From the NCBI GenBank assembly GCA_043771635.1, contig JAYVHA010000006.1:1668-65667 (forward strand): 64,000 bases of DNA, given 5' to 3'. Origin of the DNA: Candidatus Woesearchaeota archaeon. Its GTDB lineage: Archaea > Nanobdellota > Nanobdellia > Woesearchaeales > SKIA01. The notes beneath the pieces are model-generated. The model did no database searches. It saw only the letters and a list, made by a program, of their open reading frames with translations, and was not told the origin of the DNA. A program made the position numbers and the translations under genes. Shown here in pieces: positions 32,493 through 62,344 of the stretch; the first letter of the stretch is position 1; every line of letters begins with the position of its first letter.

Positions 32493-32526
32493 TTGAATTG
32501 CGATAAGTAGTATTGTTTAATTACCT

Positions 32527-33963: not shown

Positions 33964-34051
33964 GAGTAATGGACGCCAAACAGGGTTATAAATGAGACGC
34001 TAAAAATATCGAGGCCGAGCGAAGGCATATAAACTGCTTTGCGCATCTATA

Positions 34052-34804: not shown

Positions 34805-34869
34805 TAATAAATCAAAATAGCGCGGTTACAATATAAAAAACGGCAACAACATAAAATCGTTACAAATTT

Positions 34870-35295: not shown

Positions 35296-35326
35296 TTCTT
35301 TTTTGCGAGGAGAAACCACGGTAATT

Positions 35327-36040: not shown

Positions 36041-36069
36041 ATTAGGCTCACTCTTGCCACACTAACAGC

Positions 36070-37137: not shown

Positions 37138-37189
37138 AACAATTAATTTTGGAAGCACAAGACCCTATAAAGCGTCGAGGCAAGCACAA

Positions 37190-38340: not shown

Positions 38341-38412
38341 ACAAAGCTAAAGCAAACAAAGCTAAAGCAAACTCAGCAATAGCAAACAAAGCTAAAGCAA
38401 ACAAAGCTAAAG
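38341..38412. repeat. 15-nt tandem repeat (caaacaaagctaaag) x about 5, intergenic
   Basis: Direct reading: acaaagctaaag caaacaaagctaaag caaactcagcaatag caaacaaagctaaag caaacaaagctaaag. Lies between the Zn-ribbon gene's 3' end and the TatD promoter. Confidence 0.6.
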
Positions 38413-38820
38413 GTTGGTCAGAAATGCGAGCGTAAATTCTTCTTCAAAAGTTGTCGTACGCGTTTCTTTCTCGTCTCGGATTAATATATCCGCACGATAT
38501 GCCCCTTCATCTTTCTCGATAGTGTCGGCGTCAACAATAACCACGCAGTCACGGTCGGTCTCCTCGCCAATCGCGTCTTCAAGCGCATCAAGAAGCGCTT
38601 CTTTATCGGACACTGAAGCAGAGTTTAACCTGGAAGCAAGGCCGTGCTGTTTACTTTTTATAAAGACTCCTTCACCACAGCTAGGACAACCAGTGTGTGC
38701 ATCCTCTTCTCGGGCCACTGCGGCGCAGCGTAAACAGTAAAGCATTCTATACGGACAGCAGTCGCCGTATATAAACTTGTGTGCCAGTAGTTCTGAGCTA
38801 ATAATGTGCGCGCGACTCAC
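38407..38820 (-). CDS. Cys4 zinc-ribbon protein with acidic C-terminal half
   Basis: CPYRMLYCLRC...CPSCGEG. Sits 9 nt downstream of the giant ORF's stop, so it is probably co-transcribed. Confidence 0.4.
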   Translation of the reverse strand: MSRAHIISSELLAHKFIYGDCCPYRMLYCLRCAAVAREEDAHTGCPSCGEGVFIKSKQHGLASRLNSASVSDKEALLDALEDAIGEETDRDCVVIVDADTIEKDEGAYRADILIRDEKETRTTTFEEEFTLAFLTNL

Positions 38821-38828
38821 TGCAACGC

Positions 38829-41800
38829 TTAATACACTATTGATGTATTGGTTGTAAGCGCTCGCACACCTACAATGAACATGTTTGTTAGGTTTACTGA
38901 ACCATTTACGCTAATGTTTACACTGCTTGAGCTGCCAGCCGTAATGTTTGGTAAGTACCATCTTAGTGACGTGCCGGAAGCTAATGGACCATTTACTATC
39001 TGTGACTCGAACGGCACAGAACTATAACTCGCATTGAGACCATGCGGCACGAACCCATAAGCGAACACGTCATGCTCGGTGTAGTTCTGGGCATTTGTTA
39101 TGTTAATTATTATGGTGCGTTGCTGCGCCGCGACATCTGTTACGTTCCAGCGCACAGTTAAGTTTACTGCGCTGCGGATACTTGCATTGGCAGTTGTGCT
39201 ATTTGGATTGTAGAATAGTTTTGCACAAGTCACAGTATAATTGACTACGCCCTCAAGGGAGAACGCAGTTGTGTTATCGTATAGACCGCGCGTTCCGTTG
39301 TAGACCATGGTTGCGTTACGGTCAAAGAACCTAATTGTGCAGTTCGCATCCGTAATGGTGCCGCCTGTTGAATTTGTTGCATTCGCATAGTAGCGTCCAA
39401 GGGAATTTGAATATATTGAACCGTTGAAGTATTCTTCACTGTCGAACACGCTGAGTCCTATGAAACCATATACAGTAAAGTTTCGCAGCGAGTAGTTAGT
39501 TGTAAAGAAGTACTTTGCAACTGGAATGGCGGACGTATTCCACACACCCACTCCGTAAGTGAAGAGGTTCTGCGTCGCGTTCCAAACAGTTCCGTTTGAT
39601 GTTGCGACTGGCATAGTAGTACCGCCAATTGGAGGAAGTAACGTCAAGTTAAGTGTTAAGTTATAGGTTTGGTTAAGTACTGTTGCGTTTTCAAAACCGA
39701 AGCTAGACGCTGCTAGGTATAATAATGCTGTATCCGATTCATTGTATTCAAGTCGAGGCCTGTCCGCTGCAAGCTCGTAAGACACGTTTATTCCACCGTA
39801 TATTAGTAAAGTGCGAGTTCCGTTTGGAATGCCGCCGCTGTTGTTCATTGACCATGTCCAGTTGCCAGCATACATCGTCGAGTTTGGATCTATCGTTAAG
39901 TTGACATACGTGTCCGTCGTAACGTTCGAACCTAGATAGATTGTACCGTTTGGCAATCCTAATGGGTCGGTACGGTTTGCCCATACTTCAACTAAGATCC
40001 CGTTTGGAACTCCTGCTTTCACTCTCGTTACTAGCAAAGTTTGATCTGCGAAGAGCGCACTTACTCCGTCACGATCAACAATAGTATCATTTGCTGGCGA
40101 CTCTGGCGTAAGCGATATTGGCGTAACATTCAAGGTAGCGGACACATTTGCCTGTAGTACATAATAGAATAATGAAAGGTTACTTGTTGCGTTACACGTT
40201 ATGTTCATCAGACCTTGGACAGTTGGAGTATACAACACAGTTACGTTACCACTGGCATTAGTTAAGTTGCTTGCGACAAACGAGCCACCAGCATAAACGC
40301 TCACGTTTAGTCCTGCAACAGCAGCCGACGTATGACTGTCAATTACTGAACAAGCAATAATCATAGTCTCGAACGCTTCCACGGGACTTGATATAAGCGA
40401 GATACTACTAACATTAGCAAAGCCGTAAACTGTAGTATTGCGAGTGTTGTTACTGGTTTGTATAAAGTAATTAGCGGAAGCATCCACACTTGCGTTCCAT
40501 ACGCCAACTCCGCCTGCAGGAATTAGTAATGTGTCGTTTCGCCACGTGGTACCTCCAAATACTAGGCCACGCGCAATTCTACTTCCATTTGCAGCAGCGA
40601 GAGATTGGTTTACAACAGCTCCGTAACTTGCATTCAATGCACTTCGATTTTCAGGACCGGCGGAGGTTATATTCAAACGTACAGTTACTGTTTGATTTTG
40701 AGTGTAGTTGGAGTCCAAATCGAAGGTACCATTCTCATAAGCGATAATGAGCTGACCAAACACAATTACTGCGCGCGTACCATTAGGTGCTCCTGCACTG
40801 CTGTTTCCATACCAGCTCCAATTACCTGCGTATATCGAAGCATTAGGATTGAAGTAAACAGTAATGCTGCCGCTGCTAGTTGTATTGTTCGCGAACAGAA
40901 CTGCGTTTTGCGCAGGACTAATGGTGCCTGGGACAGTTAAGTTCGCACGCACATCGATTGCAACGCCATCAGGAATGAAGCTCGGTACAGTTAACACAAA
41001 TGTAGCATCATCAGGCAAGGTAGTATTAGCACTATCGCGATCTAATGCAGTACTATTTGCAGGAGCGGTTGGCGTTATTGGGAAAGCGACCACGCTCACA
41101 GATGTATTGCGCTCGGGCTCTAGGCCGCGGAAGTATGAAATTGCAGGCTGATCCGTTACGTTACAAGTAATCGTGTAAGAACCCGTAACATTAATTGCGT
41201 GCGTGAGTGAAGTGTTACCGGTTAAATTTGTACTGTTTAAGCCGATTAGTATTCCGTTTCGATAGAATGAAACAGTAGCGCCGTTTACAGGGACACTTGT
41301 TACTTGGTTTTGTACGCTACAACTTGACGTAAACGATTGATATGCAAACGGCGCTGCGTTCGACGACGTACTGTTAGTTACGTTCATAATTCCGTACACT
41401 ACTAATGTGCGGTTACTTGCATTCATGAAGAACCAATTGGCTTGCGCGTCTACTGTTGAGTTCCACACACCAGGGCCGCCTGGCAGGTTTATTGCAATTG
41501 TTCGGTTCCATAGCGAACCATTGTATGTGAGCGCATAGCTCGCGTTTCCTGAAGTACGCTCGAAAGTAGCATTTGTTACGGTTGCATACGAACTGTTAAG
41601 CTCACTACGCGTTTCAGGTCCTGCGCTCGTAACGTTAGCTTGCACCGTTATGCTTTCATTTTCGGTGTAGTTTACATTTGGATTTGTGGTAGCACTGTTG
41701 TACACCGCGGTGAGCTGTCCGTAAACAAGCACTGTCAAACTTCCATTGCTATCGCCATTCGAGGCATTTCCATACCAAGACCAGTTACCTGCGTAGATGC

Positions 41801-44800
41801 TGCTGTTAGGGTTAAAGTATAAAGTTGCGATTCCACCACTTGTAGTGTTGTTGCCGAAAAGCACCGCAGCTTGACCTAGGCCGGCTGGACTTGTTAGGTT
41901 TCCTCTGAAGTCCACTCTCACACCATTAGGAACTACGCTTGGCACCGCCACTGTTAGCACTACTACATCAACCATGCTGGCATTTCCACTATCACGATCA
42001 ACCGCTGTATTATTCGCTGGGGAGGTTGGCGTAATTGTGAAAGGCGTAACAGTTACTGTGCTATTACGCTCAGGTTCTGAGCCGCGGAAGTACAAAATGG
42101 CTGGCTGATCACTTATGTTACAAGTTATAGTGTAAGTGCCAGTTGTGTTAATGCTGTGCGTCAAGGTAGCAAACCCTGTAGCGTTAGTCGCGTTCGTACC
42201 CAGCAGCGTTCCATTTCGATAGAATGATACAGTTGAGCCTGCAACGCTGTAGCCACTAAGTTGATCCTGAACACCGCACGACGCAGTTGTTACTTCAAAG
42301 GCCATGATGCTTGTCGGCAATGACGTATTACTGGTTACGTTTGCAAAGCCGTAGAGCACAAACGTTTTGTTTGTAACGTTGCGATAGAAGTAGTTCGCGC
42401 TACTGTTGGCTATTGTTGACCATGTGCCGACGCCGTAAAGTTGACTTAGTAGGTGAGTGCCATTCCAGAATGGATTAGTGTAACTTAGCGTTGCGTTCGT
42501 TGTATAGCCGCTCGTATTCGCGATTGTGTTGCGCACACTTGCTCCATAGCTCGCGTTAATCTGATCACGCGACTCAGGACCTGAGCTTGTTAAGTTTACT
42601 TCAATTCGCGCGCTGTCAGTTTGATTGTAGCTGCCGTTAGGATGTTGAAGCGCGTTTCTATAAGTGGTAACAAGCCCGCCGTAAACAGCCACAGTGCGTG
42701 TTGTGTTACCGAAGCCCTGGCTGTTGTTACCGTACCAGGTCCAGTTTCCTGCATATATGCTTGCGTTAGGGTTGAAGTACAGTACTGCGCTGCCGCCAAC
42801 AGTTGTGTTATTACCAAAGACTATGCTGTTTTGACCGAGACCGTTTGGCGTTGTTAAGTTTGCAATGAAGTCAATGCGTACGCCGTCAGGGATTGTACTA
42901 CGCACTGTGACATTGAGCATTATTACATCAGCGTCTGTACTGTCCACACTGTCACGGTCTACTGCGGTATCGTTTGCTGGAGAAACAGCGTTTAGCGCGA
43001 ACGGCAGAACTGTTATCGAAGTATTTCCTAGTGGCGCGTCGCCGCGGTAGTAGAATATATTGCTCTGGTTGCTGACATTGCACGCTAATACATACGTACC
43101 TGTAATGTTAATGCTGTGCGTTATTGTTGTGCGGCCTGTTGTATTTGTTGTGTTCGTTCCAATAAGCGTTCCGTTTCGGTAGAATGAGACAGTGGCGCCT
43201 GTTACGTTTACATTCGTGTGCTGGTCCTGCACGCCACAGGTCATGGTGGCAGACTCAAACACTTCTATCGTAGATGCGGACGTAGTGTTGGAAGTTATAT
43301 TCATGAAGCCGTACACAGTAGTATTTCTCACTCCTACCGTGGTGCTATTGAAGAACCATGCAGCCCAAGCAGTAGCCGTTGCGTTCCACACACCTACACC
43401 GTTTGGAGGCATAAAGAGCGCGCTACCCGACCAAACTGGAGTGCTATATGCAAGGCCTGTTGTATTGTTGCCATTTAGCGGAGATATCAGACTTGCATTT
43501 GCCGCGGCACCATAGTTTGCGCTAATCTGGTCGCGTGTTTCCGGACCACTGCTAGTAACGTTCACACGCAGTGTTGCAGTCGCGTTCTGCGTGTAGTTAA
43601 CATTCGGATCGAACGAACCGTTTTGGAACACCGCAGTAAGCTGTCCATACACATGCAAATAACCGTCAATGTTACTGTAGGCATTGCTGTTGTTACCAAA
43701 CCACGTCCAGTTACCTGCGTACAACGTGCTATTAGGATTAAACAAAAATGACGCGCTACCGCCGACAGTAGTATTATTACCGAGCAGTATATTAGTTTGA
43801 CTTAGGCCTGCTGGAGTTGTAAGGTTTCCAAGGAAGTCAATTCGAACACCATTAGGAACATAGCTTGGCACTGTGATGTTTAGCACTACTGTGTCCGCCA
43901 TACTGCCATTACCACTGTCGCGATCGAGTGGGGTTCCGTTTGCCGGACTCGTCACGTTAATTGCGAAACCGACCACAGTAACTGTAACATTTCGCTCATT
44001 TTCTAGTCCCTTAAAGTATAGTATCGCTGGCTGATCGCTAATGTTGCAGGTTACAATGTAAGTGCCAGTTACGTTTATAGTGTGAGTTAAAGTGGAAGTT
44101 CCGGTTGCGTTAGTTGTATTTGCACCGATAAGCGTTCCATTTCGGTAGAACGAAACGGTTGAACCTGCAACACTGTAGCCACTAAGCTGATCCCTCACAC
44201 CGCAAGTCGAGGTAATTGACTGGAATGCAGTAGGAAGCGCAGGGCTTGTGCTGTTGCTAGTTACGTTTGCAAAGCCGTAGAGGACAAACGTTTTGTTTGT
44301 GACGTTACGATAGAAGAAATTAGCACTGCTGTTTGCAAGCGTAGTCCAAGTACCAACACCCAATAGGCCGCTAAGTGGCTGCGTTCCGTTCCAGAATGGA
44401 TTAGTGTAACTGAGCGTTTCGTTCGTTGTATAGCCGCTAGTGTTCGCGATTGTATTACGCGCACTTGCTCCGTAGCTCGCATTAATCTCATCACGCGACT
44501 CAGGACCAAAGCTTGTCAAGTTTACTTCAATTCGCGCGCTGTCGGTTTGATTATAGCTACTATTAGGGTTGAACGAGCTGTTACGGTAACTAGTATTTAG
44601 ACCGCCGTAAACAAGCACTGTTAGTGTTGCGTTCGACGTACCGCTACTCGCGTTCGCATACCAAGTCCAGTTACCTGCATAGATTGTCGCATTAGGGTTG
44701 AACCACAAAACTGCGCTACCCGCGAGCGTAGTATTATTGCCGAATAAAATATTGGTCTGAGCAAGTCCCGAAGGTGTTGTTAAGTTACCACGGAAGTCAA

Positions 44801-53800: not shown

Positions 53801-56800
53801 GGCTAACTAGGCGATAGTTGTTTGTACCTGCTGGAGTTACCGTAGGATATGCCCAAAGCATTATTGTATAATTTTCACCTAGGACAAAATCCGAGCTATT
53901 CCCAACGTCAATCGCTTCACCGCCACCACCGAAGCGTACCGATGCGCCGACCTTACCGAAGCCGCTAGAGTTCGGACAATTGCCTGATACGGGTCGACAA
54001 GTTGCGTTGTTACCGCGCGCATAGTCCCGGATAGCGCCGTAGGTGGAAGGTGCCGCTAATATTGTGTTAAACGGAAGATTAAGTAGTGAGATAGGATTAC
54101 CACTCTCATACCAGTTATAGGTGTTCGTTACACTCGGCGAGTCAACATCAGCTGTCGATTGATTATAGACAGTTATATTTTCGCTACTAAGATTGCGGAT
54201 AGTACTCGAGTTTAGTATTGGCGTTGTGTGCGTTGGCGGACTGTTTGTTATGTTGATTAACGCATTCAAGTTCTGAACAGAGAAATCGAAGTTAGCGGAG
54301 TCGGTCGCGTTACAAAGAACTACTGCGTTTGTTGCAGTATTAGTGAAGTTATAGCTAAAAACAGCAGTACCATTGCTATTAGTGATGTTTCTGCCAATTA
54401 GAACTCCATCTAAGAAGAAGCCAATAGTATAATTGTACCACTCAAACTTATTTTGATCGCTAGTGCTGTCGATTGCGTGACAAGTAATGTTCACTATTGA
54501 ATTGTAGGCAGCACTTGTCGATGACAATACTATTGAATCGATTTTTGTGTACTTTGCTTTGTTTACAGTCCAGTTCCAGCGTACTTGAATTGGGATGCGC
54601 GCAGCACCGGCAAGTAATTCTGTGGTGCGCGACCAAGCGCTGCTGCTTTCATTTCCAGCACGGAACGTAAACGTGCTTGTTGAGTTTTCCGCGAAGTCAT
54701 AGTCTGGGTTCGCGATAAAGTAGAAGCTGTAGTTTGTTGCCGCAGCCAAGTTATTCCAGCCCGTCATTTCGGCGCTCGCGTTCTCAGCGTTCTCTCCTGC
54801 GGATGAAAAGAAGTCAATCACGTTTGAACTGTCGTCGTTGTCTAAGTCTCCTGCATAAATGGCGGCAGCTACGTTTCCTGCTGCAATATCAATGTCGACA
54901 GCAGTCCAAGCTCCATTTGCAGGCGTTCCATCATTGTGGAATGCCATAACGTCTTGGTCGTTGATACTTGCAAACACGTCAAGCCAACCGTCACCATCAA
55001 TGTCTGCTACGGAAACTCCCCATGGAGTATCAGTTGTGTCGGCGCTAATGGTTCGTTGCGTCCATGCCGCTCCAGTACACGGGCTTCCGTCGTTTTCTAG
55101 GTACACTACGTCATTTGCCGTCTCTACTCCTATGATAATATCAACGTCACCATCATTATCTACGTCGCCGACAGCCATTGCGTTTGCGTCGCCGCCAACG
55201 TTTGCGGATGCTGCAAACTCAGTCCATGCGCCAGCTACGCCTCCTGTACAATATACATCTACGTCTTCGTCGTCGTCTCCTTGCGCAACGTCAAGGAAGC
55301 CGTCATTGTCGAAGTCGGCAACTACCACTACGTTCGATTCTAGTCCTGTTGCTGCGTCTATGTCAGCAATAGTCCATGCGCCGTTGTATGGTGAACCGTC
55401 GTTTGACCACCAGGAAATGTCGAAAACGCCAGCAACCGCTCCGACGAGGTCTGTGTCTCCATCGTTATCCATGTCGCCGCTAGCAAGACTGTTTACGTCG
55501 CCGCCAGCTGCTAGTTCTACAGTGCTTCGTGTCCAGGCGCCGACAAACGGCGTGCGGTCGCTGTTGTTGAAGCAATACACGTCTTGACCAACCGTACCAC
55601 CACAGATGTCCGGGTAGCCGTCACGATCGATATCAGCAACAACAACCGAGTACGTGTCCGCTAGAACGTTTGCGTCTGCGATGAGTTCAGTCCAGGCGCC
55701 GGCGAACGGAGTGCCGTCGTTCTCAAATATGCGCAAGTCTTCCAAATTATTTCCAATTAGTAAGTCTAAGTCGCCGTCGAGATCAAAGTCACCACCTTGA
55801 ATGATGTTTTCCGTTGTAGTTGTTCCTATGTCAGCGTCAGCTTGGAATTCAGTCCAAGCAGCACCAAACTTATTCGACGAAGGGTTAGTATAAACAAAAA
55901 TATCATCAGCACCTGAAACTAGAACTGTTGCATCCGGGTCTCCTATAATGCGACCAATCTCTCCTGTATTAGCATCAACAGTATAGTCGACGTTGGTACT
56001 CGTACTCACGAAAACGTCAGCGGTTTCTGTTGCGTCGTTAGTTACCCACGCAGTTGGAACAATATACTCTGCTGACGCAGAGTTATTTAACAATCCAAAC
56101 GAGTTATTTGCTATAATTACAGTCTCGCCGTGGTAGTCTGAGTCGAATGCGTACAGCTGCTCAGACTCAATTTGTACTTCAACCAAATAATTACTGTAAC
56201 TGTACAAAGATTCAGCAAAGGCGCCGACATCACGTACGGTTCCGTTTGGCGCGACTTGCAGTATTGATTCTGTACCAATTAATACGTCGTCTGCTCGACT
56301 AGTTGTGTTTCTCGTATCCCACACATAGACGCGCGCGTTATACTGCGCAACGCTGGTGTTTACACCTATTGACCTACTTATGCAAGTTACTAGCGAAGCG
56401 TTAGCGGCGCAACCTTGGATGTCGTACTGCGCTTCACCAAGTCCTGTTTGGTTTGCAACGAACATCCACTGGGTCACGCCAATCTTGTTTAACGATGATA
56501 AATATGATTGATATGCTTCGCTTGCGTTCAGCGTTCGGTTCCATACACGGATTTCATCCATGTCACCTGCAAAGTAGTCATCCGAAGCTGGACCAGCAGT
56601 GTCCGTAATTACTCCAAAGCCCGAGAACTGCAATGTCTTTCGGCCTGCTTCGGACGCGGCAGTGGCATTCAGGATGCCGTCGATGTATATGTTGACGGTT
56701 CCTGTTGTTTCGTCGCGCGTAAACGTGTAGTGCCTCCACGCACCATCATTGATGGCAATAGTGCTGGCTGCGTTCGCGCCGTTACCTGCTTGCATATTGA

Positions 56801-59800
56801 TGTTTCCTGCCACGTTAATCCAGCCCCAGAAAATATCGTCGCCGCCGGCACCTTGCTCTATTCCAGTAATTCCAGGCGCCGTCCAGGGGTTTGCAGAACC
56901 TGTCTGCGTGGTGCGCATCCACAATGAAAGTGTTGCCGTGCGTCCAAGCCAGGTTGTCAAGTTAACACTTGTATTGACAATGCCAGTAGTACCGTAAAAG
57001 CTCATTCCCTGACGTACTACACCGGTAGTGTTTGGAGTTGCACTACCCACTATGTTTGCGGAAATGGCATTGCGACTCACATCGATAGCTTGAGTCGCAC
57101 TCTCACCAAGTGCAGTTAAGTTGTCAAAGTTAAACATAACCTGCAAAGCAGTATCATTGTAGATAGTATAGTTAGTACCGTTCCACAAATATGAGAAGCC
57201 AAGCAAGTTGGTATTATTTATCGATATGTTTACTGTAAAGTTGTTTGCGTTAACTACTGCGCCGTCTTGAGGAGTAGGATTTGTAAACCCAATTTCAATC
57301 GGCAACGGGTCCACTGCGAGCTGTGATTGCGTGATCGTGCCATCAGTAAACGTAAAATTAAGTACAGCATAACCCGCGACAGTCATTACGTTTTTGAGTT
57401 CGCCTGTTTGATCGTCGCAATTATAGTTTTCGATAAAGAGCTGCGCGATGTCAATGCTGTCTTCGGAATTAATTGCATTGTAAGCGTACTGACTTCCGTT
57501 TGTTGCAATAATTGTAAGACTGTTTGACAAATCAGTATTGCCACAAGCCATGCTTAGCAGCACCATTTCTTCCGTGCGACCATTTGTATCAGTGAAGAGC
57601 TCGCTCCAATTCGCGTTTGGACTGAAGACAGTTAAGTTACCAGTGCCTGTTGTATTGAAGAACACTGTCCAGGTTTCCCCGTCCCGCAAGTATTCTAAAG
57701 GATTGAGAATTGAGAGGGACAACTCGTAGGTCTGGTTTGACAAGTGCGGCACAATCCACACGAGGCGATCAAACTTTCCGTCTGCGTTCATGTCCTGCGT
57801 TGTGAATACTACCGGCTCACGCACACCGGCAGTTGTTCTGAATAGTTCGTACTTACTCTGTTGCGCTGCCGTAAACGGCGTCACATCTAAGAAACTCGTG
57901 ATAGCAGTGTAGTGCGTCTCGGCGGATACGACAAGCGCAATGCGATCTGCGGTTTGCTCGGTAATAGTGAGCTGCGGCGCTTCTGTTTCGTAGGTAATAA
58001 CAAGGCTCTCAGCGTCGTTCGTAACAGGTACACTAAGCTCCAAGTCTCCAATCGGCAAGTCAGGAATAATACTAAGCACTTGGTCTTCTACAATTAGTTG
58101 CGAGCTACTTACTACTGGCAGAATAATCGGCTGTGAAGCTCCTGGCGTGCCCGTGCTCGTATCAATAGGAGCAGCAGATGGTACAATTATTTCTAGCGCG
58201 CCGAGCGTAACCGCTTGCTCTGGCTGTGACGCATCAGGCTGCTCTGAGAGTGTTTGCGCTGCTTCGATAATATCCACGCGCGCACTCTTTGCATCCTCGC
58301 CTGTGAGTTCTCCTTGCGCTTCAAGGCTACGCTTAACGTCACTCACAGTGTTCTCTGCAAGTAGTCCGTCAAGCGTCGGCGCAGCATTTGCAGCTGCCGT
58401 AGCAGGCAGTTCATTTTCTCGCAGCGCGCGGCGTAGTTCACCAAGTTCAACGGTTTGCGTAATGTCTTTGCGCACGCCAGTTTGAGCGTCACGAGTTTCA
58501 ACAATAACATCTAGCACAGTCGATGGCAGCGTAATGTTGGTTTCGTTCGAGTTATCAGTAATCTCAATAATTCGCGTCCACTGTACTCGCTCGCCAATTA
58601 TTGCTCTTGACTGCGTATCATTTACAGTTGCATTGCGTAGCGCGTTTATTGCCTCAGTAGCAGAGATAATTATCTCAGTAGCGTTTGTTTCGCTCGAAAC
58701 GTTTGTATTGTTAGTAATAATTGGAAGTGTTAAGTTAGTAGCATTAGTTGCGTTCACTATTACAACTGGTTGTATTGGTACTACTGGGCGCAATAATTTT
58801 ACTTCGCCGATTTGTGTGATAGGAATAAACGTTAGTGCGTCAACTACCACAAGTTCGCTCGTGCCTGCGTTTGACACGCTTACAGTACTTGCAGGATTAA
58901 GCTCATACAAACCTAAGTACTGCTCGCCACCTTGTCGCTGGTTTACTGTTACTGTGGCGCGGCGCGCACCCGTAATTATTACTTGCGCGTTCGAGGCAAG
59001 CGAAGGATCTGCTGGCGTGTTAATACTTACTGAATACTGACCGCGCGCAAGGCCTGGGGAATACTCGACTGCGCTTCCTTTGTTAAGATTTAGGTCGATT
59101 AAATAGTCGAAGCCGACATAACCAGGGATTGTCGTTCCTGACGCCCACACACCATTGCTACGAACGCGCGCGTCGCCGTTGTCAAGCACTACACGCAAGT
59201 CAACCGGAACAAGAGAGCCTAAAATTAAAGTAGCAAAGAACTCTGTGTTTGCTGGCACTGCGCCAAGGTCCCAAATAATAGTGTCGGAAGTAGCAACAAG
59301 CATTCCACTCGCCCGTTGCTGCTGACCTGCAGCGTCAAGCCAAGAAATTACTTTACCTGCGGCAGCAGGTAGTTCAATTGTGTAGTGCTCATGCGAGACG
59401 CCAAAGCGCTCAGTAATTAGAACTACTTCGTCTCCGGACAAGCGGTTGTACCAACGAGTTCGGAAATTGTTACTGGTGTCAAGGTCGCCTGCAACACTGA
59501 CTTGCACTGTGGCAATATTGCGTCCGCCTAAACTGCCGATTGAAACATTGTTCATTCCTGGTGCAAGCGTAATTTCGCGCGTGTTTGTCGCACCAGTTTG
59601 GTTACCTACTTGCGCTCCGGCAATAATTGTGAGTGTTGCAGTAAGCGGCGCGTTAAAACTATTGTACAGCACCGCGTTCGCATTCTCTGCGGTTCCACCG
59701 AGCGTAATTACGCGCACGTCCAAACTCACTGGTAGACCGGCAGCTTTCACAACAATACTGTCAGTTACACTTGCGGTTGACGAAGTAGCGGAGTCGCCAC

Positions 59801-61691
59801 CGTCCGTACTCGCGGTGAAAGTCACGCGCGTGCCGCTCGAGCCTGGAGGTAAAAATACGCGCGCGGAGATTGGCGCACTTTGACCTGGTTCGATTAGTAA
59901 GTCAATGTTACCATCGGAATCACTGTCCTCGCCATCCAGAAGCACTACAAGCCCGGCTTGCGACGCGTTTGCAGTAATTTGCACGCGCATTGCCTGTGCT
60001 ATGTTTCCGTTCGTAATTAGGTGTGTGAGCGTAACCGTTGAGTTCTCATTAACCGTAGTGTTCTTTGCGCTGTCAAATGACAATCCGCCGTCTGCCGCAA
60101 GCACGCGAAGTGGAACCGCTGCTTGCACTTCGCCTTGTACAATCGCAAGATAACTTCCAGGCGGCACTGCCGCGAGTAAGGAACGCTTACCACTTGCGCC
60201 AGTAAACGTTTGCCGCATCAAGCTTGTGCCGTCTGTTGCTATAATTGTGAACACAGTATCGGCGGATGTAGCGGCTGCGTCCGTACTTTGCGCTTCGATA
60301 CTCGACGTCGTTCGTGCCTTACTTACGTCGTAGGCAATCAACAGTTCGCCGTTTGGCAGTACAGGATCAGTTACTGACAAGCTTCCACCTGCGCTGGTTA
60401 CTACAGCCACCGCAGTATTTAGCGCGTATATAACGCTTGAAGTGCCGTTCCAGTATACAGGAATCGTCTCTAATGCTTCGTTGAATGCAATAATTTTACC
60501 TGGGAAAGTGTATCGATGCAATCCTTGCGCGCGAACTAGAGCGCCATATGCCGTTTCGCGTTGCTCGGCAACGCTTATCGCCGGTAGTCCACGGCGCACT
60601 TCCAAAAATCCTGAACCTGCCGGCAATATTATTGAATTCTTATACCATGATAGTTCTGTACGCGTGCCGTTTGATAGGAAGTATGCGTTTCGCGCAGTTA
60701 CTGAAGTAGGTAATTGTACAAGGCTTTCACGAGGTTCGCTTATTGGAGTAACGTACCAAGCTTCGGCGCCATCGCTTGCGCTCTCAAACGTAGGCGCAAC
60801 GACATTACTTCGAGCGACTATAGAAACAGGATATGCAACTATTGCTTCGCCTTCCTTGACTATTACTTGGAGATCTTGAGGCATTAATGGAACAAGTGAG
60901 AGACGCCCATCACGAAGAGGAATCAGACTTAACACTCCGTCTGAAATTGCATATAACTGCGCAGTCAGCGGCGCAACTATTGATACTGGCTCGCCGACGC
61001 CGCTTGTTCGCTCAACGCTTATGTTCTCTGATGCGACGCCGTTTCCAATAACTGAAAACCGCTCATACTGGTATGCTTGACGAGTGCTTATTCTAAGTAG
61101 CAATGCTTCCGAGTGCACTGACGCCGGAAGCACGCAGCTTACAGTACATGTCCCGTCGCACGGCATACGGCATACTTGCGCGTAAAGTTTGTCACTAAGC
61201 TTTCCAGTTGCGAATGGCGCAGCCTCGATTACTACTTCGCCGCGCCCACCGATAGTAACGGTGCCGTCAATCAAACTTCCATCTTGGTTACGAGTAAGTG
61301 CGCTCTCAAACAGGAAATTAGGTTTTCGCACTAGTAGCTGCTTAGTTGCACTTTCCTTCTGCTCACCAACAGTGACCGTTGCAGTAACCGTGTAAACGCC
61401 TTCTTCAGTTACATAAACACTTGCCTCATAGCCTCCAAGGCCAGGTTCATTCAGCAGCACAGGCACTGCTACTCCGTCCGGGCCAATTACCGTCAAAGTT
61501 GCCGGGAACGACAGAATACTAATGCCGCCAAGGCTTGCAGCCAGGAAGAACTGTCCGCTCTCACCTGGCGAGAGCTCAATAGGACCATCAAGCGCGACTG
61601 CTAATGCTGGCGCATCGCCATATGCTTGCCCTGCTGTGATCGTAAGCACGAGCGCAAGCGCAATACTCAGCACCACTGCTAACGGCAACAT
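38829..61691 (-). CDS. giant surface protein (about 7620 aa from the probable start; ORF reads 7707 aa to 61952) with FG-GAP/VCBS-like, LamG-like and about 13 tandem units of roughly 320 aa
   Basis: One uninterrupted 23-kb ORF. Probable start at Met88 (MLPLAVVLSIALALVLTITAGQAYG signal-anchor). D-x-D-x-DG Ca-binding FG-GAP-like repeats (GDFDLDGDLDLLIG, VADIDRDGYPDI, SGDMDNDGDTDL, VADFDNDGFLDV). Three LamG/ConA-like domains ending in MDE(I/V)R(V/I)(W/Y)NR(T/S)L. Repeat units marked by SFYRNGT.IG.N.TN.TG and CN(I/V)SNQ. Hundreds of NxS/T sequons. Confidence 0.8.
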   Translation of the reverse strand: MLPLAVVLSIALALVLTITAGQAYGDAPALAVALDGPIELSPGESGQFFLAASLGGISILSFPATLTVIGPDGVAVPVLLNEPGLGGYEASVYVTEEGVYTVTATVTVGEQKESATKQLLVRKPNFLFESALTRNQDGSLIDGTVTIGGRGEVVIEAAPFATGKLSDKLYAQVCRMPCDGTCTVSCVLPASVHSEALLLRISTRQAYQYERFSVIGNGVASENISVERTSGVGEPVSIVAPLTAQLYAISDGVLSLIPLRDGRLSLVPLMPQDLQVIVKEGEAIVAYPVSIVARSNVVAPTFESASDGAEAWYVTPISEPRESLVQLPTSVTARNAYFLSNGTRTELSWYKNSIILPAGSGFLEVRRGLPAISVAEQRETAYGALVRAQGLHRYTFPGKIIAFNEALETIPVYWNGTSSVIYALNTAVAVVTSAGGSLSVTDPVLPNGELLIAYDVSKARTTSSIEAQSTDAAATSADTVFTIIATDGTSLMRQTFTGASGKRSLLAAVPPGSYLAIVQGEVQAAVPLRVLAADGGLSFDSAKNTTVNENSTVTLTHLITNGNIAQAMRVQITANASQAGLVVLLDGEDSDSDGNIDLLIEPGQSAPISARVFLPPGSSGTRVTFTASTDGGDSATSSTASVTDSIVVKAAGLPVSLDVRVITLGGTAENANAVLYNSFNAPLTATLTIIAGAQVGNQTGATNTREITLAPGMNNVSIGSLGGRNIATVQVSVAGDLDTSNNFRTRWYNRLSGDEVVLITERFGVSHEHYTIELPAAAGKVISWLDAAGQQQRASGMLVATSDTIIWDLGAVPANTEFFATLILGSLVPVDLRVVLDNGDARVRSNGVWASGTTIPGYVGFDYLIDLNLNKGSAVEYSPGLARGQYSVSINTPADPSLASNAQVIITGARRATVTVNQRQGGEQYLGLYELNPASTVSVSNAGTSELVVVDALTFIPITQIGEVKLLRPVVPIQPVVIVNATNATNLTLPIITNNTNVSSETNATEIIISATEAINALRNATVNDTQSRAIIGERVQWTRIIEITDNSNETNITLPSTVLDVIVETRDAQTGVRKDITQTVELGELRRALRENELPATAAANAAPTLDGLLAENTVSDVKRSLEAQGELTGEDAKSARVDIIEAAQTLSEQPDASQPEQAVTLGALEIIVPSAAPIDTSTGTPGASQPIILPVVSSSQLIVEDQVLSIIPDLPIGDLELSVPVTNDAESLVITYETEAPQLTITEQTADRIALVVSAETHYTAITSFLDVTPFTAAQQSKYELFRTTAGVREPVVFTTQDMNADGKFDRLVWIVPHLSNQTYELSLSILNPLEYLRDGETWTVFFNTTGTGNLTVFSPNANWSELFTDTNGRTEEMVLLSMACGNTDLSNSLTIIATNGSQYAYNAINSEDSIDIAQLFIENYNCDDQTGELKNVMTVAGYAVLNFTFTDGTITQSQLAVDPLPIEIGFTNPTPQDGAVVNANNFTVNISINNTNLLGFSYLWNGTNYTIYNDTALQVMFNFDNLTALGESATQAIDVSRNAISANIVGSATPNTTGVVRQGMSFYGTTGIVNTSVNLTTWLGRTATLSLWMRTTQTGSANPWTAPGITGIEQGAGGDDIFWGWINVAGNINMQAGNGANAASTIAINDGAWRHYTFTRDETTGTVNIYIDGILNATAASEAGRKTLQFSGFGVITDTAGPASDDYFAGDMDEIRVWNRTLNASEAYQSYLSSLNKIGVTQWMFVANQTGLGEAQYDIQGCAANASLVTCISRSIGVNTSVAQYNARVYVWDTRNTTSRADDVLIGTESILQVAPNGTVRDVGAFAESLYSYSNYLVEVQIESEQLYAFDSDYHGETVIIANNSFGLLNNSASAEYIVPTAWVTNDATETADVFVSTSTNVDYTVDANTGEIGRIIGDPDATVLVSGADDIFVYTNPSSNKFGAAWTEFQADADIGTTTTENIIQGGDFDLDGDLDLLIGNNLEDLRIFENDGTPFAGAWTELIADANVLADTYSVVVADIDRDGYPDICGGTVGQDVYCFNNSDRTPFVGAWTRSTVELAAGGDVNSLASGDMDNDGDTDLVGAVAGVFDISWWSNDGSPYNGAWTIADIDAATGLESNVVVVADFDNDGFLDVAQGDDDEDVDVYCTGGVAGAWTEFAASANVGGDANAMAVGDVDNDGDVDIIIGVETANDVVYLENDGSPCTGAAWTQRTISADTTDTPWGVSVADIDGDGWLDVFASINDQDVMAFHNDGTPANGAWTAVDIDIAAGNVAAAIYAGDLDNDDSSNVIDFFSSAGENAENASAEMTGWNNLAAATNYSFYFIANPDYDFAENSTSTFTFRAGNESSSAWSRTTELLAGAARIPIQVRWNWTVNKAKYTKIDSIVLSSTSAAYNSIVNITCHAIDSTSDQNKFEWYNYTIGFFLDGVLIGRNITNSNGTAVFSYNFTNTATNAVVLCNATDSANFDFSVQNLNALINITNSPPTHTTPILNSSTIRNLSSENITVYNQSTADVDSPSVTNTYNWYESGNPISLLNLPFNTILAAPSTYGAIRDYARGNNATCRPVSGNCPNSSGFGKVGASVRFGGGGEAIDVGNSSDFVLGENYTIMLWAYPTVTPAGTNNYRLVSRQNGGAGGWEFIMRSSVGGATRTLRFDNGPSDTSIVGAWGSNQWQHFAVTNNVTTFTFYVNGTAWGTGTAGATSYNNLNLTLGQTPDGTGVSFAGYMDEVRIYNRSLPASQVYRIWLEGNNSINTSTIVAGDTRGGQTYYACVTPNDNASDGTTLCSNNLTVVGGVDVLLPGNHTILDRDSQNATHNDSVVLNLTTYDPFVTITFRANLTDPSGLAQTNLVLGQNSSDVNGQSTLVFNPNSSMYAGNYTWWGEGTNYVPNVLGSFVVMGSYNISYFNGSTFPSLNHTMNETLEVRWNLTSKGPESATVLSTNYLTLAVSLLRNTSGGTNNISASYANPYWNATHNLTNLKGVGVWNSTINGTATYFYTNTTSKNVTILSNMNVTGHVLNASSIDAFTQSISRCSVLDSITNYAVANVNVSFYRNGTLIGTNLTNATGNVTLIHQINQSGSYIITCNISNQTEIFYYRGIEWERNASLTVLPYAITPWLPTNNSRVDRDSVDATDADSVVLRLNTSTAAVPAGTVIDFRMNLTDPTGVIPSANSSNVLIGSNITNATGGTSFIFNPNSTSYAGNWSWYGNSSSGYGNGSNTIIIMGGLNATYRNTTFDPNASYNQTSLMLIQVNISTYGPENLSALNATYNISVNNTLYNTSGSLITTNLVFNGSVFWNRTINFSALLGVGRWNITASTGGKFFYLNFTNRTTDVFGFMNVSANYTSPASPTAYQSMITWCNISDRLSNYRIPGITVDFYRNGTFIGTNTTNSTGESTLTHTINASGNYHVWCNITNQTSLFYFVGNAPNGTMAVTVTPVPITMVAPTNATVVDRDGVDSTDPDVIMLNATVPNYVPAGASIDFLGNLSNPSGLGQTNIIFGSNLTTAGAWVNFHLNPNSSTYAGNWTVFGNSTGGTSNNTRSFIMKGGLNASYENDTLSPNSAYNQNDTAVVAVNVTSLGPESRSELSANYGIALNNTFQNTTGSRSGVNLSFNGTQWRNTTFNLLTLKGVGIWNTTSNSTGTYWYSNWTNRTIAVYGFMNITSNSTTPASIVAYGTTLSSCSVIDQHTNYGVSGATVTFFLNGTFLGSNSTNASGITTLTHSVNATGTYGVQCNVTNQTGIFYFRGDEFARNTSLTVTPYAINVSSPVNGTAVDRDSVDATDPDSIMLNVSVPSSVPSGVLVYFNVNITSPAGILPAQTTITLGSNNTTAGNWANIYFNPNATMYAGNYTWWGNSSAGVSGQVRNFLVYGGLNATYTSGLYHPNGTYNQTDIARIETNVTSFGPENASALNLTYGINVNNTIYNTSGSTNIVNLTNGSTFWNGTHTLSALNGVGTWNTTTAADSIWFYRNWTNRSFVVFGFMNITVNTSTPASISAFQTTISSCTVLDRQSNAAVAGATVTFYLNGTYLGANNTNATGITTITHAVNTSGTYGVQCNITNQTAIFYLRGNEFERNSSLTVIPYVINATTAANGTAVDRDGAYSLDPDNVMLNVSVPNYVPSGTYIEFRANLTNPNGIVPSQQNISLGGNNTTAGNWANIYFNPNLTMYAGNYTWWGNSSAGVSGQVKNILVYGSFAVVYRNNTYHPNATYNQTDTATVQVNVTSNGPEVDAELASNYSAVLSSRYMNSSGTISAMVMSYVGPYWNGSHLLTVLPGVNRSNSSINATANWFYSNGTNRTMLVYGYMNVTANYSSATSVTTYQTIISACSVSDQYSNYSVPYASVSFYVNGTFIGTNGTNSVGNTSISHSINQTGVYTVTCNVTDLSPLFYYRGNGPERNTTITVTPVILQPVSPVNGTSVDRDATNSTLADVIALNVTVSSVVPAGVLVEFRGNLTSPNGLSQTDVLFGSNNTTAGNWAILYWNPNGSIYAGNWSWYANLSGGVPNATRTAFVYGSYNLTFTSATVDPNASYEKPGVVLVNATPVMYGPETAALLNSSYNASFNATIIRDNLTQIATPLQYDGGDWNGSLALITTDNRGTYDARLNGSVSWLLLVNASNRTFEVQNVPPTQGSPTLIASDNPLNLSSAFLFAQNQSTTDAEGDTVSNIYAWSIDGAPYATVQMPFEGGSNSTYAEDYSGNGYDGAVGSSVTWNSTGGVNSRGAYYFGPVNGGIDLGDRSEIDGTTALTVAMWVKNNDLTDDGTLLSKGTFVAGQPLLLWRDEVAFNSGRTDTYSVMLTGNSGELRLETSTGSGNTIAWQHIAIAYTANSTQGIRFYINGVEDAQSPLSTVNMTSLDSNALSLLIGKPTTTLAKDFDGRIDDVRIYNRTLSLAQIRQIMLEGNSTTWNATIVSNETQAYQTWQACVTANDGANESSRACSNTVTINPTLVITSPANETPVDRDSASAVDADSINLVVNADGDSGINVTYWGNLTSPIIGGQTNLFLGSAVTNITGTAVLAFNPNSSYYAGNWTWWPNATNASSQSSATIGIYGGLSIVHANASGTPGVNQTQNETFELRFNLSSTGGPETRDILNATYGAALSTRIANTSNFSRNATASYTNPYWNATQVATSLAGVGNWSSTGNASAQWFYVNSTTRNFTLLGLMNVTIANVTLNTTTVYSTFNIRCTVVAQYSNYTVSGANVSFYRGAQLLGTNVTNSAGLSSFAHTINTTGVYALTCNVSDQPSISYVRGLEPERNISINVTEYVVQPVAPANNTALDRDSANATMADLTDLNVTVDSVVPNGVRIEWYANLTNPAGIAGQTNIFLGNNTTVASGATLWFNPNSTRYAGNYTWWANGTGGTLNGTRTFLVYGQLTSVFENGSFDPNANYTQNGTATLRLNLTSSGPETRDQISANYAATANASLLSPLSGNNTTGLSYASPVWSGSALFIPPNSVGVWNATATAWAAWFFNSTTVGVRNTTVYGYMNVTSGLVSPSTIVAFSSTTSTCRVQDQHTNRNVSGATVSIFLNGTLLGSNTTNATGYTTLSYVQNSTGVYTVSCNVSNQTSIFYYRGDAPEQNATLTVIPFPIDAVAPANDTVLDRDSVNTMDVDFVMLNVTVPSSVIDGVRIDFRGNLTTPSGLAQTNILFGNNTTLAGSAVLWFNPNATIYAGNWTWYANASSGTSNATLTVLVYGGLNTSYRNSSFNPNSSYNQTDSARIEVNLTSFGPESRDEINASYGASARNTIANTSGYTTNETLSYTNPFWNGTQPLSGLLGVGTWTTLANSSANFFYRNVTNKTFVLYGFANVTSNSTSPALPTAFQSITSTCGVRDQLSGYSVAGSTVSFYRNGTLIGANTTNATGTSTLTHTINVTGTYIVTCNISDQPAILYFKGLENERNVTVTVVGFAINVTSPANGTPLDRDSGNGSMADTVVLNITVPSYVPNGVRIDFLGNLTTPAGLSQTNILLGNNTTVGGSASFLFNPNSTLYAGNWTWFGNNSNAYSNIDGYLHVYGQLTAVFQNGSFDPNVNYTQNATATLRVNVTSSGPETRDQISANYGAAANASLISPLNGNNTTGLAYSTPVWSGSALFMPPNGVGVWNATATAWAAWFFNSTTVGVRNTTVYGFMNITSNTTSASTIEVFESATMTCGVQDQHTNVNVTGATVSFYRNGTLIGTNTTNTTGRTTITHSINITGTYVLACNVSNQSNIFYYRGDAPLGNTSITVLPFALNAVSPANDTAVDRDSVDSTDADVIMLNVTVRSTIPDGVRIDFIANLTTPNGLGQNSIVFGNNTTVGGSAVLYFNPNASIYAGNWTWYGNNSQGFGNTTRTVAVYGGLVTTYRNALQHPNGSYNQTDSARIEVNLTSSGPESRDQINASYGASVRNTIANTSGYTTNATLSYTNPFWNGTHLLSQLYGVGTWSTIANSSANYFYRNVTNKTFVLYGFANVTSNTSLPTSIMAFEVTTASCGVQDQLSGYSVAGSTVSFYRNGTLLGTNATNATGFATLTHSINTTGTYTITCNISDQPAILYFRGSEPERNSTVTVTPFTITPTSPANNTAVDRDSGNASMVDVVVLTVAVPSVVPNGVRVDFRGNLTSPAGLGQAAVLFGNNTTSGGIATLYFNPNSSIYAGNWSWYGNASNGDSNGSLTVLVYGQLTAVYNSATTNPNVNYTENESITVQANVTSAGPETRSELNSSYATVTNATFERTSGNASYALTYNGSLWNRTIAINLPGGPGVWNSTVDAQANWFFMNASNRTLVVYGIMNVTNSTSSNAAPFAYQSFTSSCSVQNQVTSVPVNGATVSFYRNGILIGLNSTNLTGNTSLTHAINVTGSYTITCNVTDQPAISYFRGLEPERNTSVSVVAFPITPTAPANSTALDRDSANTTLPDDATFVLTVPSFIPDGVAIDVRANLTVPGTISPAQNAVLFANNTTSSGSITVYFNPNASIYAGNWSWYGNSSAGAPNGTRAVIVFGQLIIAYENGTFDLDSNYTQNQTVTVRLNITSAGPENRSALNASYGAVVNQSLAAANGSRIARGLVFGGTTWRNDTLLIPAGGVGVWNASVDASANYFIQTSNNTRNTTVYGFANVSSISLISSPVEAFETMIIACSVIDSHTSAAVAGLNVSVYAGGSFVASNLTNASGNVTVLYTPTVQGLMNITCNATSNLSLFYYVLQANVSATLNVTPISLTPESPANDTIVDRDGVSALFADQTLLVTRVKAGVPNGILVEVWANRTDPLGLPNGTIYLGSNVTTDTYVNLTIDPNSTMYAGNWTWSMNNSGGIPNGTRTLLIYGGINVSYELAADRPRLEYNESDTALLYLAASSFGFENATVLNQTYNLTLNLTLLPPIGGTTMPVATSNGTVWNATQNLFTYGVGVWNTSAIPVAKYFFTTNYSLRNFTVYGFIGLSVFDSEEYFNGSIYSNSLGRYYANATNSTGGTITDANCTIRFFDRNATMVYNGTRGLYDNTTAFSLEGVVNYTVTCAKLFYNPNSTTANASIRSAVNLTVRWNVTDVAAQQRTIIINITNAQNYTEHDVFAYGFVPHGLNASYSSVPFESQIVNGPLASGTSLRWYLPNITAGSSSSVNISVNGSVNLTNMFIVGVRALTTNTSIVY

Positions 61692-61849
61692 ACGCTGCGC
61701 GCCTGCCGAGCGAGCTTGCGTGAGGCACAGAGAAGCTCGAGTAGTTCTTGTAGCAGAACGAGCGCTAGTCCTGGCAGTTAAGCGCACACAAGTACTTGCA
61801 GCGCAGCGCATGCTAGTGCTTGCAGCCTTGTTTCGCGGATAAGCAAAGC

Positions 61850-62344
61850 TCATTTTTGCCCTCCGCGACCTAGCACGTAGCGCACTTGCTGCGTCGGTAA
61901 GTTTGACAAAATTTGCGCAAGGCGAACAGGCGTAAGACCAGTTTGCTTGCAAATTGTGGTTAGCGGCAATCCCTGCTGGTACGCGTGCACTATGTGCGTG
62001 TATCTTAGCACAAGCGGAGTGACTTTACCGCGGCGTATGCGCGCCAAGTGGGGTTTGAGAATTTGTTGAAGGCGCTTTGGGGTGATGGACTCATCTTGTC
62101 GACTAGAAAATGCAAACGCATTGGCCTGCTTAAGGACAGTGTGTGCGAGCTGAGGACTGATTGTTGCAGCACGATCTGAGAAGGTTATTGTGCCGTCGCT
62201 GCGAATCGCAGATGTCTTAAGTTCTGCAAGCTCGCTGACAGTGCAGCCACTCTCGTATAAAAACTGGGCAACAAGTTTATCGCGCTCACGCTCTATAGAA
62301 CTAATGAACGACTGATACTCCTCATAATCGAGGTAATCTACCAC
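61850..62344 (-). CDS. small tyrosine-recombinase-fold protein, catalytically degenerate
   Basis: 164 aa that aligns by eye to the XerC/D catalytic domain (ERDKLVAQFLYESGCTVSELAELKTSAI ~ box I; TPLVLRYTHIVHAYQQGLPLTTICKQTGL ~ HxLRHxxAT box II; QQVRYVLG ~ the catalytic Tyr). Arg-I (T), His-II (L) and His-III appear substituted. Confidence 0.45.
   Translation of the reverse strand: MVDYLDYEEYQSFISSIERERDKLVAQFLYESGCTVSELAELKTSAIRSDGTITFSDRAATISPQLAHTVLKQANAFAFSSRQDESITPKRLQQILKPHLARIRRGKVTPLVLRYTHIVHAYQQGLPLTTICKQTGLTPVRLAQILSNLPTQQVRYVLGRGGQK

Follow-up and report, generated by a model that had tools for sequence, protein, structure and literature searches.

Background

DPANN archaea such as Woesearchaeota are abundant, mostly uncultured and thought to be attached to other cells, and their contact molecules are largely uncharacterised. 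Here we analysed a 64,000-nucleotide stretch of DNA (the window; contig JAYVHA010000006.1) from a Candidatus Woesearchaeota archaeon, in which a 23-kb open reading frame (ORF) on the minus strand predicts a giant surface protein. The protein itself is present in public databases without annotation, and giant LamG-bearing surface proteins of archaea, including DPANN, are a recognised class (PMC11573180). Laminin_G_3 is by far the commonest domain in archaeal proteins of more than 5000 residues (aa), where its function is not understood, and the Gene Ontology terms of these proteins lean to cell adhesion and ion binding (PMC11573180). Cultivated DPANN have been proposed to attach to their hosts by means of LamG-rich and giant surface proteins (PMC10266531).

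Overall architecture of the giant protein

Our analysis favours the giant protein being a multivalent glycan-binding surface fibre, that is, an adhesin, of a Woesearchaeota-type DPANN archaeon. We prefer this reading because the protein combines a Sec-type signal, about 45-50 beta-sandwiches, three LamG domains, a carbohydrate-binding module (CBM)-like domain and a propeller, and has no enzymatic or cytoplasmic domain, as in fibrillar adhesins. Export, glycosylation, fibre length, retention on the cell and the adhesin role are all things that we infer from sequence. New here are the definition of a three-domain repeat with a high-confidence model, a Golvesin_C domain, conserved head and C-terminal domains and a domain-specific pattern of N-x-S/T sequons. 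The features, with aa numbers counted from the first codon of the frame, are:

38829..61952, minus strand: complete stop-free reading frame, 7707 codons plus the stop at 38829-38831 (ORF listing, translation)
61851..61853, minus strand: alternative start, ATG of M34, with GGAGGG 5 nt upstream; overlaps the TGA of the upstream ORF (ATGA)
61689..61691, minus strand: ATG of M88, the start in public gene calls, giving a 7620-aa product identical to database protein P0003
61617..61691, minus strand: signal-peptide-like hydrophobic segment, aa 88-112, MLPLAVVLSIALALVLTITAGQAYG (hydrophobicity)
61119..61616, minus strand: N-terminal family-conserved domain, aa 113-278, sequon-poor (weak Filamin-like match)
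59193..60176, minus strand: family-conserved head region, aa 593-920, beta-rich, without a named family (weak Ig/MG profile matches)
58836..59192, minus strand: Golvesin_C / xanthan-lyase C-terminal type carbohydrate-binding domain, aa 921-1039 (Pfam and PDB profile match)
57753..58622, minus strand: sequon-poor linker rich in Ala/Glu/Gln, aa 1111-1400 (translation, sequon count)
56517..56954, minus strand: Laminin_G_3 domain 1, aa 1667-1812 (Pfam)
54783..55865, minus strand: FG-GAP beta-propeller with seven blades, aa ~2030-2390, a single sequon over 350 aa (Pfam and motifs)
54285..54533, minus strand: isolated copy of repeat sub-domain D3, a Big_1-like Ig domain, aa 2474-2556 (unit profile)
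53310..54323, minus strand: LamG cassette 2, aa 2544-2881, with the Laminin_G_3 core at aa 2676-2829 and then a two-Cys tail of ~50 aa (Pfam, self-comparison)
47808..53309, minus strand: repeat block 1, units U1-U6, aa 2882-4715, U6 without D3 (anchors, unit profile)
46854..47807, minus strand: LamG cassette 3, aa 4716-5033, with the Laminin_G_3 core at aa 4817-4981; paralogous to cassette 2 (Pfam)
39174..46853, minus strand: repeat block 2, units U7-U14, aa 5034-7593, U14 divergent (anchors, unit profile)
38832..39173, minus strand: family-conserved C-terminal domain, aa 7594-7707, ending ..TTNTSIVY (alignment A2 of relatives)

Comparison with described giant surface proteins

Like the huge LamG proteins surveyed in archaea (PMC11573180), the window protein is archaeal, exceeds 5000 aa and carries the hallmark Laminin_G_3 together with Ig-like domains. 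However, the surveyed proteins have one or a few LamG domains near the N-terminus (PMC11573180), whereas here three are distributed over the chain, the third of them splitting the 14-unit array. The window protein also adds an FG-GAP propeller, Golvesin_C and an unnamed three-domain repeat. With the nanohaloarchaeal SPEARE proteins (5.4-9.4 thousand aa; PMC10266531) and the LamG/PKD surface proteins of cultivated DPANN it has in common the DPANN origin, the giant size, the N-terminal Sec signal, a beta-propeller, many Ig-like domains and a proposed host-interaction role (PMC10266531). SPEARE is set apart by its description, which includes a membrane anchor, a VirB4/TraG-like ATPase domain and propellers of WD40/PQQ type (PMC10266531). 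On defining features we rejected membership in SPEARE, since the window protein has no Walker A motif, no ATPase family in the Pfam or NCBIfam scans and no hydrophobic segment past aa 112, the C-terminus included. Its propeller is of the FG-GAP type.

A long tandem-Ig extender bearing ligand-binding modules is also the plan of the giant repeat adhesins of bacteria (LapA/MpIBP RTX, SiiE, invasin/intimin), in which comparable extender arrays hold the binding modules away from the cell. Unlike these, the window protein has an archaeal host and no RTX nonapeptides, type I secretion system (T1SS) signal, beta-barrel or outer membrane. Its binding modules are interspersed and not placed at one tip, and it is presumably stabilised by N-glycans rather than by inter-domain calcium. 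An RTX/LapA-type T1SS adhesin was dismissed because GGxGxD occurs nowhere in the protein and the genomic context is archaeal. The S-layer glycoprotein csg of Haloferax volcanii (7ptp) is archaeal, N-glycosylated (as predicted for the window protein) and likewise a chain of Ig-like domains, but the window protein is about 10 times larger, lacks a PGF-CTERM/lipid-anchor signal, has lectin and propeller modules and belongs to a family in which the repeat number varies among relatives. We also discarded membership in the archaeosortase-anchored S-layer proteins: the protein has no PGF/PEF motif and no hydrophobic C-terminus, and its last 208 aa gave no match in NCBIfam.

The database protein P0015 (MBN2566452.1, Candidatus Woesearchaeota; 4684 aa, annotated as DUF2341 domain-containing protein) is a true homologue. 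It shares the N-terminal head and one unit with the window protein and has two copies of the flank-propeller-flank cassette (33-43% identity). P0015 differs from the 14-unit window protein in having 1 unit, and Pfam reports no DUF2341 in the window protein.

Reality of the gene and its start codon

The giant gene is real and under coding constraint. The earlier note had described a single ORF at 38829..61952 covering 36% of the window, and this was borne out: the ORF listing and the translation give a minus-strand frame of 7707 codons, TTG first, without an internal stop, which takes up 36.1% of the window. Judged from the base composition of the window, the chance of finding zero stops over 7707 codons is ~1e-174. 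Between paralogous repeat units of the gene, codon position 3 differs at 50-65% of sites vs 16-38% at positions 1 and 2, a divergence ~2-3 times higher. This third-position excess argues that the translated sequence is under purifying selection. When the gene was compared with itself at the DNA level, the best internal match was 70% over 2.2 kb, and no exact repeat of at least 50 nt was found within it. With copies this far apart (70% DNA identity or less), a short-read assembler is unlikely to have collapsed or mis-joined them, and on this ground we rejected assembly collapse.

The proposed length of 7707 aa holds for the longest ORF, counted from the TTG, but this codon is merely the first start-type codon past the preceding stop. 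Translation probably begins at M88, giving 7620 aa, or at M34, giving 7674 aa. The former is used in P0003 (7620 aa), which is identical to residues 88-7707 of the window ORF and is present in NCBI and ENA. The relatives P0004 and P0005 start at the point equivalent to M88, with a short signal peptide. As for M34, long Arg-rich N-regions are present in several relatives. The predicted product has ~810 kDa before glycans and a pI of ~4.4.

The TGA that overlaps the M34 ATG belongs to a 164-aa ORF (61850-62344, minus strand), and the same 164-aa protein was found on 6 contigs. It matches the C-terminal two-thirds of the archaeal XerA recombinase only, with 51 bits vs a cut-off of 220, and this partial, sub-cut-off match indicates a fragment or a minimal form.

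The repeat unit and its predicted fold

At least 13, or about 13, repeats of ~320 aa had been claimed; this was right, and we arrived at 14, not all of them complete. The anchors [VL]DRD and YAGN[WY][ST]W occur 14 times each with a period of 318-327 aa, in two blocks (6 + 8) flanking LamG cassette 3. A hidden Markov model of the unit found 12 complete copies in the giant protein, a truncated U6 (first 217 positions only) and a divergent U14. Identity among the copies is 30-75%, and U8-U9 and U10-U11 represent a duplicated two-unit block.

For AlphaFold we used alignment A4 with 40 sequences, of which 12 are window units and 28 are copies from relatives. The resulting model of the unit has a mean predicted local distance difference test score (pLDDT) of 95.2 and a predicted TM-score (pTM) of 0.80. 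With the 12 window copies alone, the pLDDT was 60 and the middle sub-domain was poorly formed, and that model was not used. The modelled unit consists of three beta-sandwiches (approximately residues 1-106, 107-217 and 218-320; D1 to D3), and the long strands 101-113 and 207-227 cross from one domain into the next. Such shared inter-domain strands would imply a stiff rod.

A Foldseek search of the unit against the PDB returned arrays of Ig-like, MG and FN3 domains, including complement C3/C5 and alpha-2-macroglobulin. The H. volcanii S-layer glycoprotein 7ptp matched with E 1.2e-9, on par with the extender repeats of the MpIBP and Lap adhesins (4p99/6xi3/6xi1). Three-Ig DIP-eta (TM 0.49), 2yn3/5 and 1cwv/6tqd were further structural matches. 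Based on the model, the unit would comprise two family-specific Ig-like domains followed by a Big_1-like D3 (PF02369, invasin/intimin Ig-like), and every D3 contains two invariant Cys. Neither Pfam nor NCBIfam has a family for D1-D2 (the first ~220 aa of the unit). As modelled, the fold is ordinary and only the sequence family of D1-D2 is unnamed. The earlier note had held that its proposal would fail if the units proved to be an ordinary known S-layer domain, and the structural search went part of the way, giving a generic Ig-like array whose matches include the Haloferax S-layer.

We counted 108 copies of D1-D2 in 38 sequences, that is, in the window protein, in 32 of the 150 top listed representative proteins and in 5 locus ORFs, some of which duplicate representative proteins. 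Within the window, an 864-aa secreted paralogue (17481-20075, plus strand) has exactly one copy of the unit right after its signal peptide (aa 45-363, E 5e-104, 46% identity to U11), followed by ~500 aa that are Cys-rich and FN3-like. Full-length 863-aa relatives of it exist elsewhere (P0014, P0016). The single-unit paralogue and its relatives suggest that the unit is a reusable module of the secretome of this lineage.

Relatives and distribution

In an exhaustive search of 1.84 billion representative proteins with the unit profile, 450 matched at E<1e-3, of which 58 reached E<1e-30. Word-indexed searches performed weakly on this N/T/S-rich protein: the unit profile retrieved 2 proteins and the N-terminal 950 aa retrieved none, not even itself. 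Among the relatives with E<1e-30, those with a named source come from Woesearchaeota metagenome-assembled genomes (MAGs). The relatives include giants of 7799, 6531, 5594, 6685 and 6851 aa, and the giant homologues have the head, the units, the LamG cassettes and the C-terminal domain in common. The conserved head and C-terminal domains thus appear to delimit a family that is seen mainly in Woesearchaeota MAGs.

When genomes were scanned with the unit profile, six loci were found, all with very long open frames, and five of the six are in Woesearchaeota MAGs. There are 14 unit copies in locus L002 and 7 in L003, and relatives have anything between 1 and 14. P0005 and L002 share one 251-kb Woesearchaeota contig. 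The sixth locus, L006 (CAYUJZ010000012.1), encodes a 2284-aa family member in a MAG labelled 'uncultured Methanosarcinales archaeon', a label that could reflect mis-binning or a gene in a possible host lineage.

The closest RtcB on a long contig (P0165, 65% identity to the RtcB of the window) is on the same 125-kb JGI contig as the 7799-aa P0004 (sample 3300071358), and the gene order SerRS-Cdc6-RtcB-TatD (window 20502-38273) is collinear with this contig. Near RtcB, the P0004 contig has an inserted 1530-aa PKD/CARDB protein and a 971-aa double-LamG protein.

Head, LamG domains and propeller

The Golvesin_C domain at the end of the head had been overlooked in the earlier note. When the segment was scanned alone, Golvesin_C (PF25275; CBM6-35-36-like_2) scored 46.7-48.4 bits vs a gathering cut-off of 31.6, and the match is present in all 12 of the 12 family homologues. 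A 12-member family profile matched residues 900-1039 of PDB 6f2p, which form the C-terminal domain of Paenibacillus xanthan lyase, with E 2.6e-31. Domains of this type are listed among the CBM6/35/36-like carbohydrate-binding modules (PMC9166713). Golvesin_C was above the cut-off in the scan of a 450-aa segment and absent from a scan of the first 2500 aa in one piece, so long and compositionally biased proteins are best scanned piecewise. Sequence searches of aa 88-1660 against the PDB and NCBIfam gave no match, and a weak CBM_48-like signal was seen at aa 1400-1660.

Three LamG-like domains sharing a terminal strand had been proposed by eye, and Pfam places exactly three Laminin_G_3 domains (PF13385, concanavalin-like lectin/glucanase clan) in the protein, with 60.7, 71.1-75.1 and 77-82.2 bits vs a cut-off of 27.6. 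Each of them is closed by the strand [MI]D[ED][IV]R[VI][WY]NR[TS]L (aa 1798, 2814 and 4966), and LamG 2 and LamG 3 each lie inside a paralogous cassette of ~335 aa (aa 2544-2881 and 4699-5031 in the self-comparison).

Between LamG 1 and LamG 2, the proposed FG-GAP/VCBS-like calcium loops were likewise recovered: FG-GAP_3 (PF13517) matched with E 1.8e-24 and 86.5 bits (cut-off 26.9), and FG-GAP (PF01839) with E 7.4e-12 and 45.3 bits (cut-off 22.1). The region is a seven-bladed propeller, as shown by seven G(A)AWT motifs that recur every ~53 aa (aa 2030-2347) and by six DxDxDG loops (aa 2055-2317). The position suggested before, around residues 1000-1500, was wrong, since the propeller is at aa ~2030-2390. 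The DxDxDG loops are of the calcium type, and the propeller is predicted to bind calcium.

Sequons and predicted glycosylation

The protein is saturated with N-x-S/T sequons, as had been noticed before: we counted 512, vs 166 expected from composition. Sequon density per 100 aa is 9.2-9.9 in the repeat units and 9.2 in the C-terminal domain, 2-4 in the LamG domains, 1.0 in the linker aa 1111-1400, 0.8 in the N-terminal 950 aa and 0.3 in the FG-GAP propeller. For comparison, the density is 0-1 per 100 aa in cytoplasmic proteins encoded by the window and 3.7-5.1 in the secreted ones other than the giant. Each unit has ~30 sequons; 24 alignment columns keep one in 8 or more of the 14 copies, and in five columns every copy has it. 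This pattern would fit a glycan-coated rod with bare interaction modules, and the protein may thus be glycosylated as a substrate of AglB.

The window encodes two more large, sequon-rich secreted proteins, one of 1191 aa with Big_13 (22889-26464, minus strand) and one of 869 aa with Gly_rich_2 (14842-17451, plus strand). Over residues 634-958, the 1191-aa protein is 29-35% identical to segments of the L002 and L003 giant ORFs. These shared segments indicate that the region holds several shuffled surface-protein genes.

Predicted export and the C-terminus

The only strong hydrophobic stretch of the giant protein is aa 83-112, in agreement with the earlier claim of an N-terminal segment and no C-terminal anchor, and a product starting at M88 would begin with its signal-like part. 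All recognised domains are of extracellular types, each D3 has its two invariant Cys, and neither Walker A nor another cytoplasmic motif is present; together with the N-terminal signal this suggests that the protein is exported. The motifs PGF-CTERM/PEF-CTERM, LPXTG and RTX are all missing from the giant protein, and the Pfam/NCBIfam scans found no catalytic, cohesin or dockerin domain in it.

The C-terminal ~115 residues are kept at the extreme C-terminus of relatives with 26-42% identity (A2), where they end in ..NT[ST][IV]V[YL]. This domain had no significant match in Pfam or the PDB. We did not adopt a DUF11/CARDB-like label for it, as two of the eight family members match DUF11 at E 0.013 and the window copy does not, which makes the label a lead only.

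Neighbouring genes

The giant gene has archaeal neighbours: an archaellin-type pilin, RtcB, Cdc6/Orc1, a PIN-KH ATPase, SerRS and TatD. The best named relatives of the window RtcB are from Candidatus Woesearchaeota, Nanoarchaeota and Nanoarchaeia (55-56% identity), and unnamed metagenome matches reach 69%. The archaeal, DPANN-type attribution made in the earlier note is therefore supported by the neighbours, by the RtcB relatives and by the five of six repeat-bearing loci in Woesearchaeota MAGs.

Two genes upstream of the giant gene and on the same strand is the 306-aa archaellin/type IV pilin-like protein (62507-63427, minus strand; Arch_flagellin E 8e-23), with a class III signal-type N-terminus and, towards the C-terminus, a DLDGDG motif. 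In L006, a homologue matching it over the full length (35% identity; 10391-11308) is 1.5 kb away from the family gene. A functional link between the pilin-like gene and the giant gene is possible, the evidence being proximity in two genomes only. The 137-aa zinc-ribbon ORF directly downstream (38407-38820) was rejected as an operon partner, since nothing like it is found next to the homologues and the protein collection does not contain it. The neighbouring genes that we examined include no glycoside hydrolase or sugar transporter.

ARAGORN called a tRNA-Phe at 18800-18891 (minus strand), inside the 864-aa gene; it is probably a false positive, and the Rfam gathering threshold confirms only the tRNA-Ser at 10543-10625. 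From motifs, we take the N-termini of two adjacent ORFs to be DNA methyltransferase-like (a DPPY motif in 6832-7614 and a Dam-like start in 7637-8464), and we presume that window 6832-9154 may be a restriction-modification island. A 203-aa ORF follows these two ORFs, in the lowest-GC stretch of the window (8001-10000, GC 0.37).

Alternative explanations

Several points weigh against the adhesin. The sequence does not allow the ligands of LamG, the propeller and Golvesin_C to be deduced, and the host dependence of the source organism is assumed by analogy with its lineage. With neither a C-terminal anchor nor a known archaeal sorting signal, the protein might be shed instead of remaining attached to the cell. 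The fold matches are generic and resemble Ig arrays both in the Haloferax S-layer 7ptp and in non-adhesive proteins. Finally, the full-length ORF is found only in NCBI and ENA records and is missing from independent Logan assemblies that contain the neighbouring genes. Of the earlier description as a giant adhesin-like DPANN protein, the DPANN setting and the module types stand, while the fold proved ordinary and the adhesin role is a prediction.

An unlikely but serious alternative is a structural protein of the envelope or coat, either S-layer-like or a halomucin-like glycocalyx, whose lectin modules would cross-link the cell's own glycans. The extreme and positionally conserved sequon density speaks for it, as does the match to the Haloferax S-layer, which is as good as those to adhesin extenders. 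Release would be possible without an anchor, and the huge secreted proteins known from archaea include one other class, the halomucins (PMC11573180). However, 7.6 thousand aa is far above the size of known lattice-forming S-layer proteins, and no PGF-CTERM, transmembrane anchor or other S-layer signature is present. Moreover, unit copies varying from 1 to 14 and shuffled modules in relatives are typical of variable adhesins and not of lattice subunits, and the propeller and head, being poor in glycans, resemble surfaces exposed for interaction. Less probable still would be a scaffold for nutrition, a non-catalytic CBM-rich fibre that keeps polysaccharides or glycoconjugates at the cell surface, available for uptake or to partner enzymes, in loose analogy with surface glycan-binding proteins or scaffoldins. 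Golvesin_C is related to the C-terminal binding module of a polysaccharide lyase (PMC9166713), and the three LamG domains of the concanavalin clan and the weak CBM_48-like signal point the same way. Yet the protein has no catalytic domain and none of the cohesin or dockerin type, the neighbouring genes examined offer neither glycoside hydrolase nor sugar transporter, and a rod of ~42 Ig domains would be needless for capturing a substrate.

We regard it as very improbable that the gene is an artefact, be it a repeat region assembled chimerically or in collapsed form, or a pseudogene in decay whose product is not one polypeptide. In favour of an artefact, the DNA comes from a metagenome and is rich in repeats, only two contigs (NCBI, ENA) and no Logan assemblies of the same organism have the full-length product, and the start codon is ambiguous. 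Against this, repeats with at most 70% identity over 2.2 kb and no long exact match allow short reads to be placed uniquely, the frame is intact across 23 kb, third positions show the substitution excess, and collinear giant homologues exist in several independent MAGs.

A model of the fibre

As an adhesin, the giant protein would be exported via the Sec pathway by its N-terminal hydrophobic signal and N-glycosylated at several hundred conserved sequons, giving a stiff glycan-coated fibre. The fibre core would consist of the 14 repeats of a three-domain Ig-like rod, with 41 beta-sandwiches. An Ig-like domain is ~4 nm long, and the extended rod would therefore measure an estimated ~150-200 nm. 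Glycan-poor recognition modules would be placed along the fibre: the N-terminal head ending in Golvesin_C, a LamG domain, the FG-GAP propeller and LamG cassettes 2 and 3, the former ahead of the repeat array and the latter in its middle. In this way, a small cell could bind glycans on another cell or in the extracellular matrix in a multivalent, lectin-like and calcium-assisted manner, for attachment to a host or a substrate.

A bolder version, which we think is rather doubtful, is that the family represents a host-tethering organelle of Woesearchaeota, a single-polypeptide glycoprotein fibre of ~0.2 µm retained by an undescribed mechanism that involves neither membrane nor sortase. Either the C-terminal domain or the head would then hold it on the cell, perhaps aided by the pilin-like neighbour. 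If this were true, the unit number and the lectin cassettes would set reach and host range.

Significance

This locus adds a documented case to the poorly characterised huge LamG-bearing proteins of archaea. It overturns nothing, as giant modular surface proteins are expected in episymbionts. It does provide a well-delimited candidate contact molecule, with a domain map, a model of the repeat and a unit profile that retrieves the family. The difference between the predicted glycan-saturated rod and the glycan-poor propeller and head suggests which surfaces may bind.

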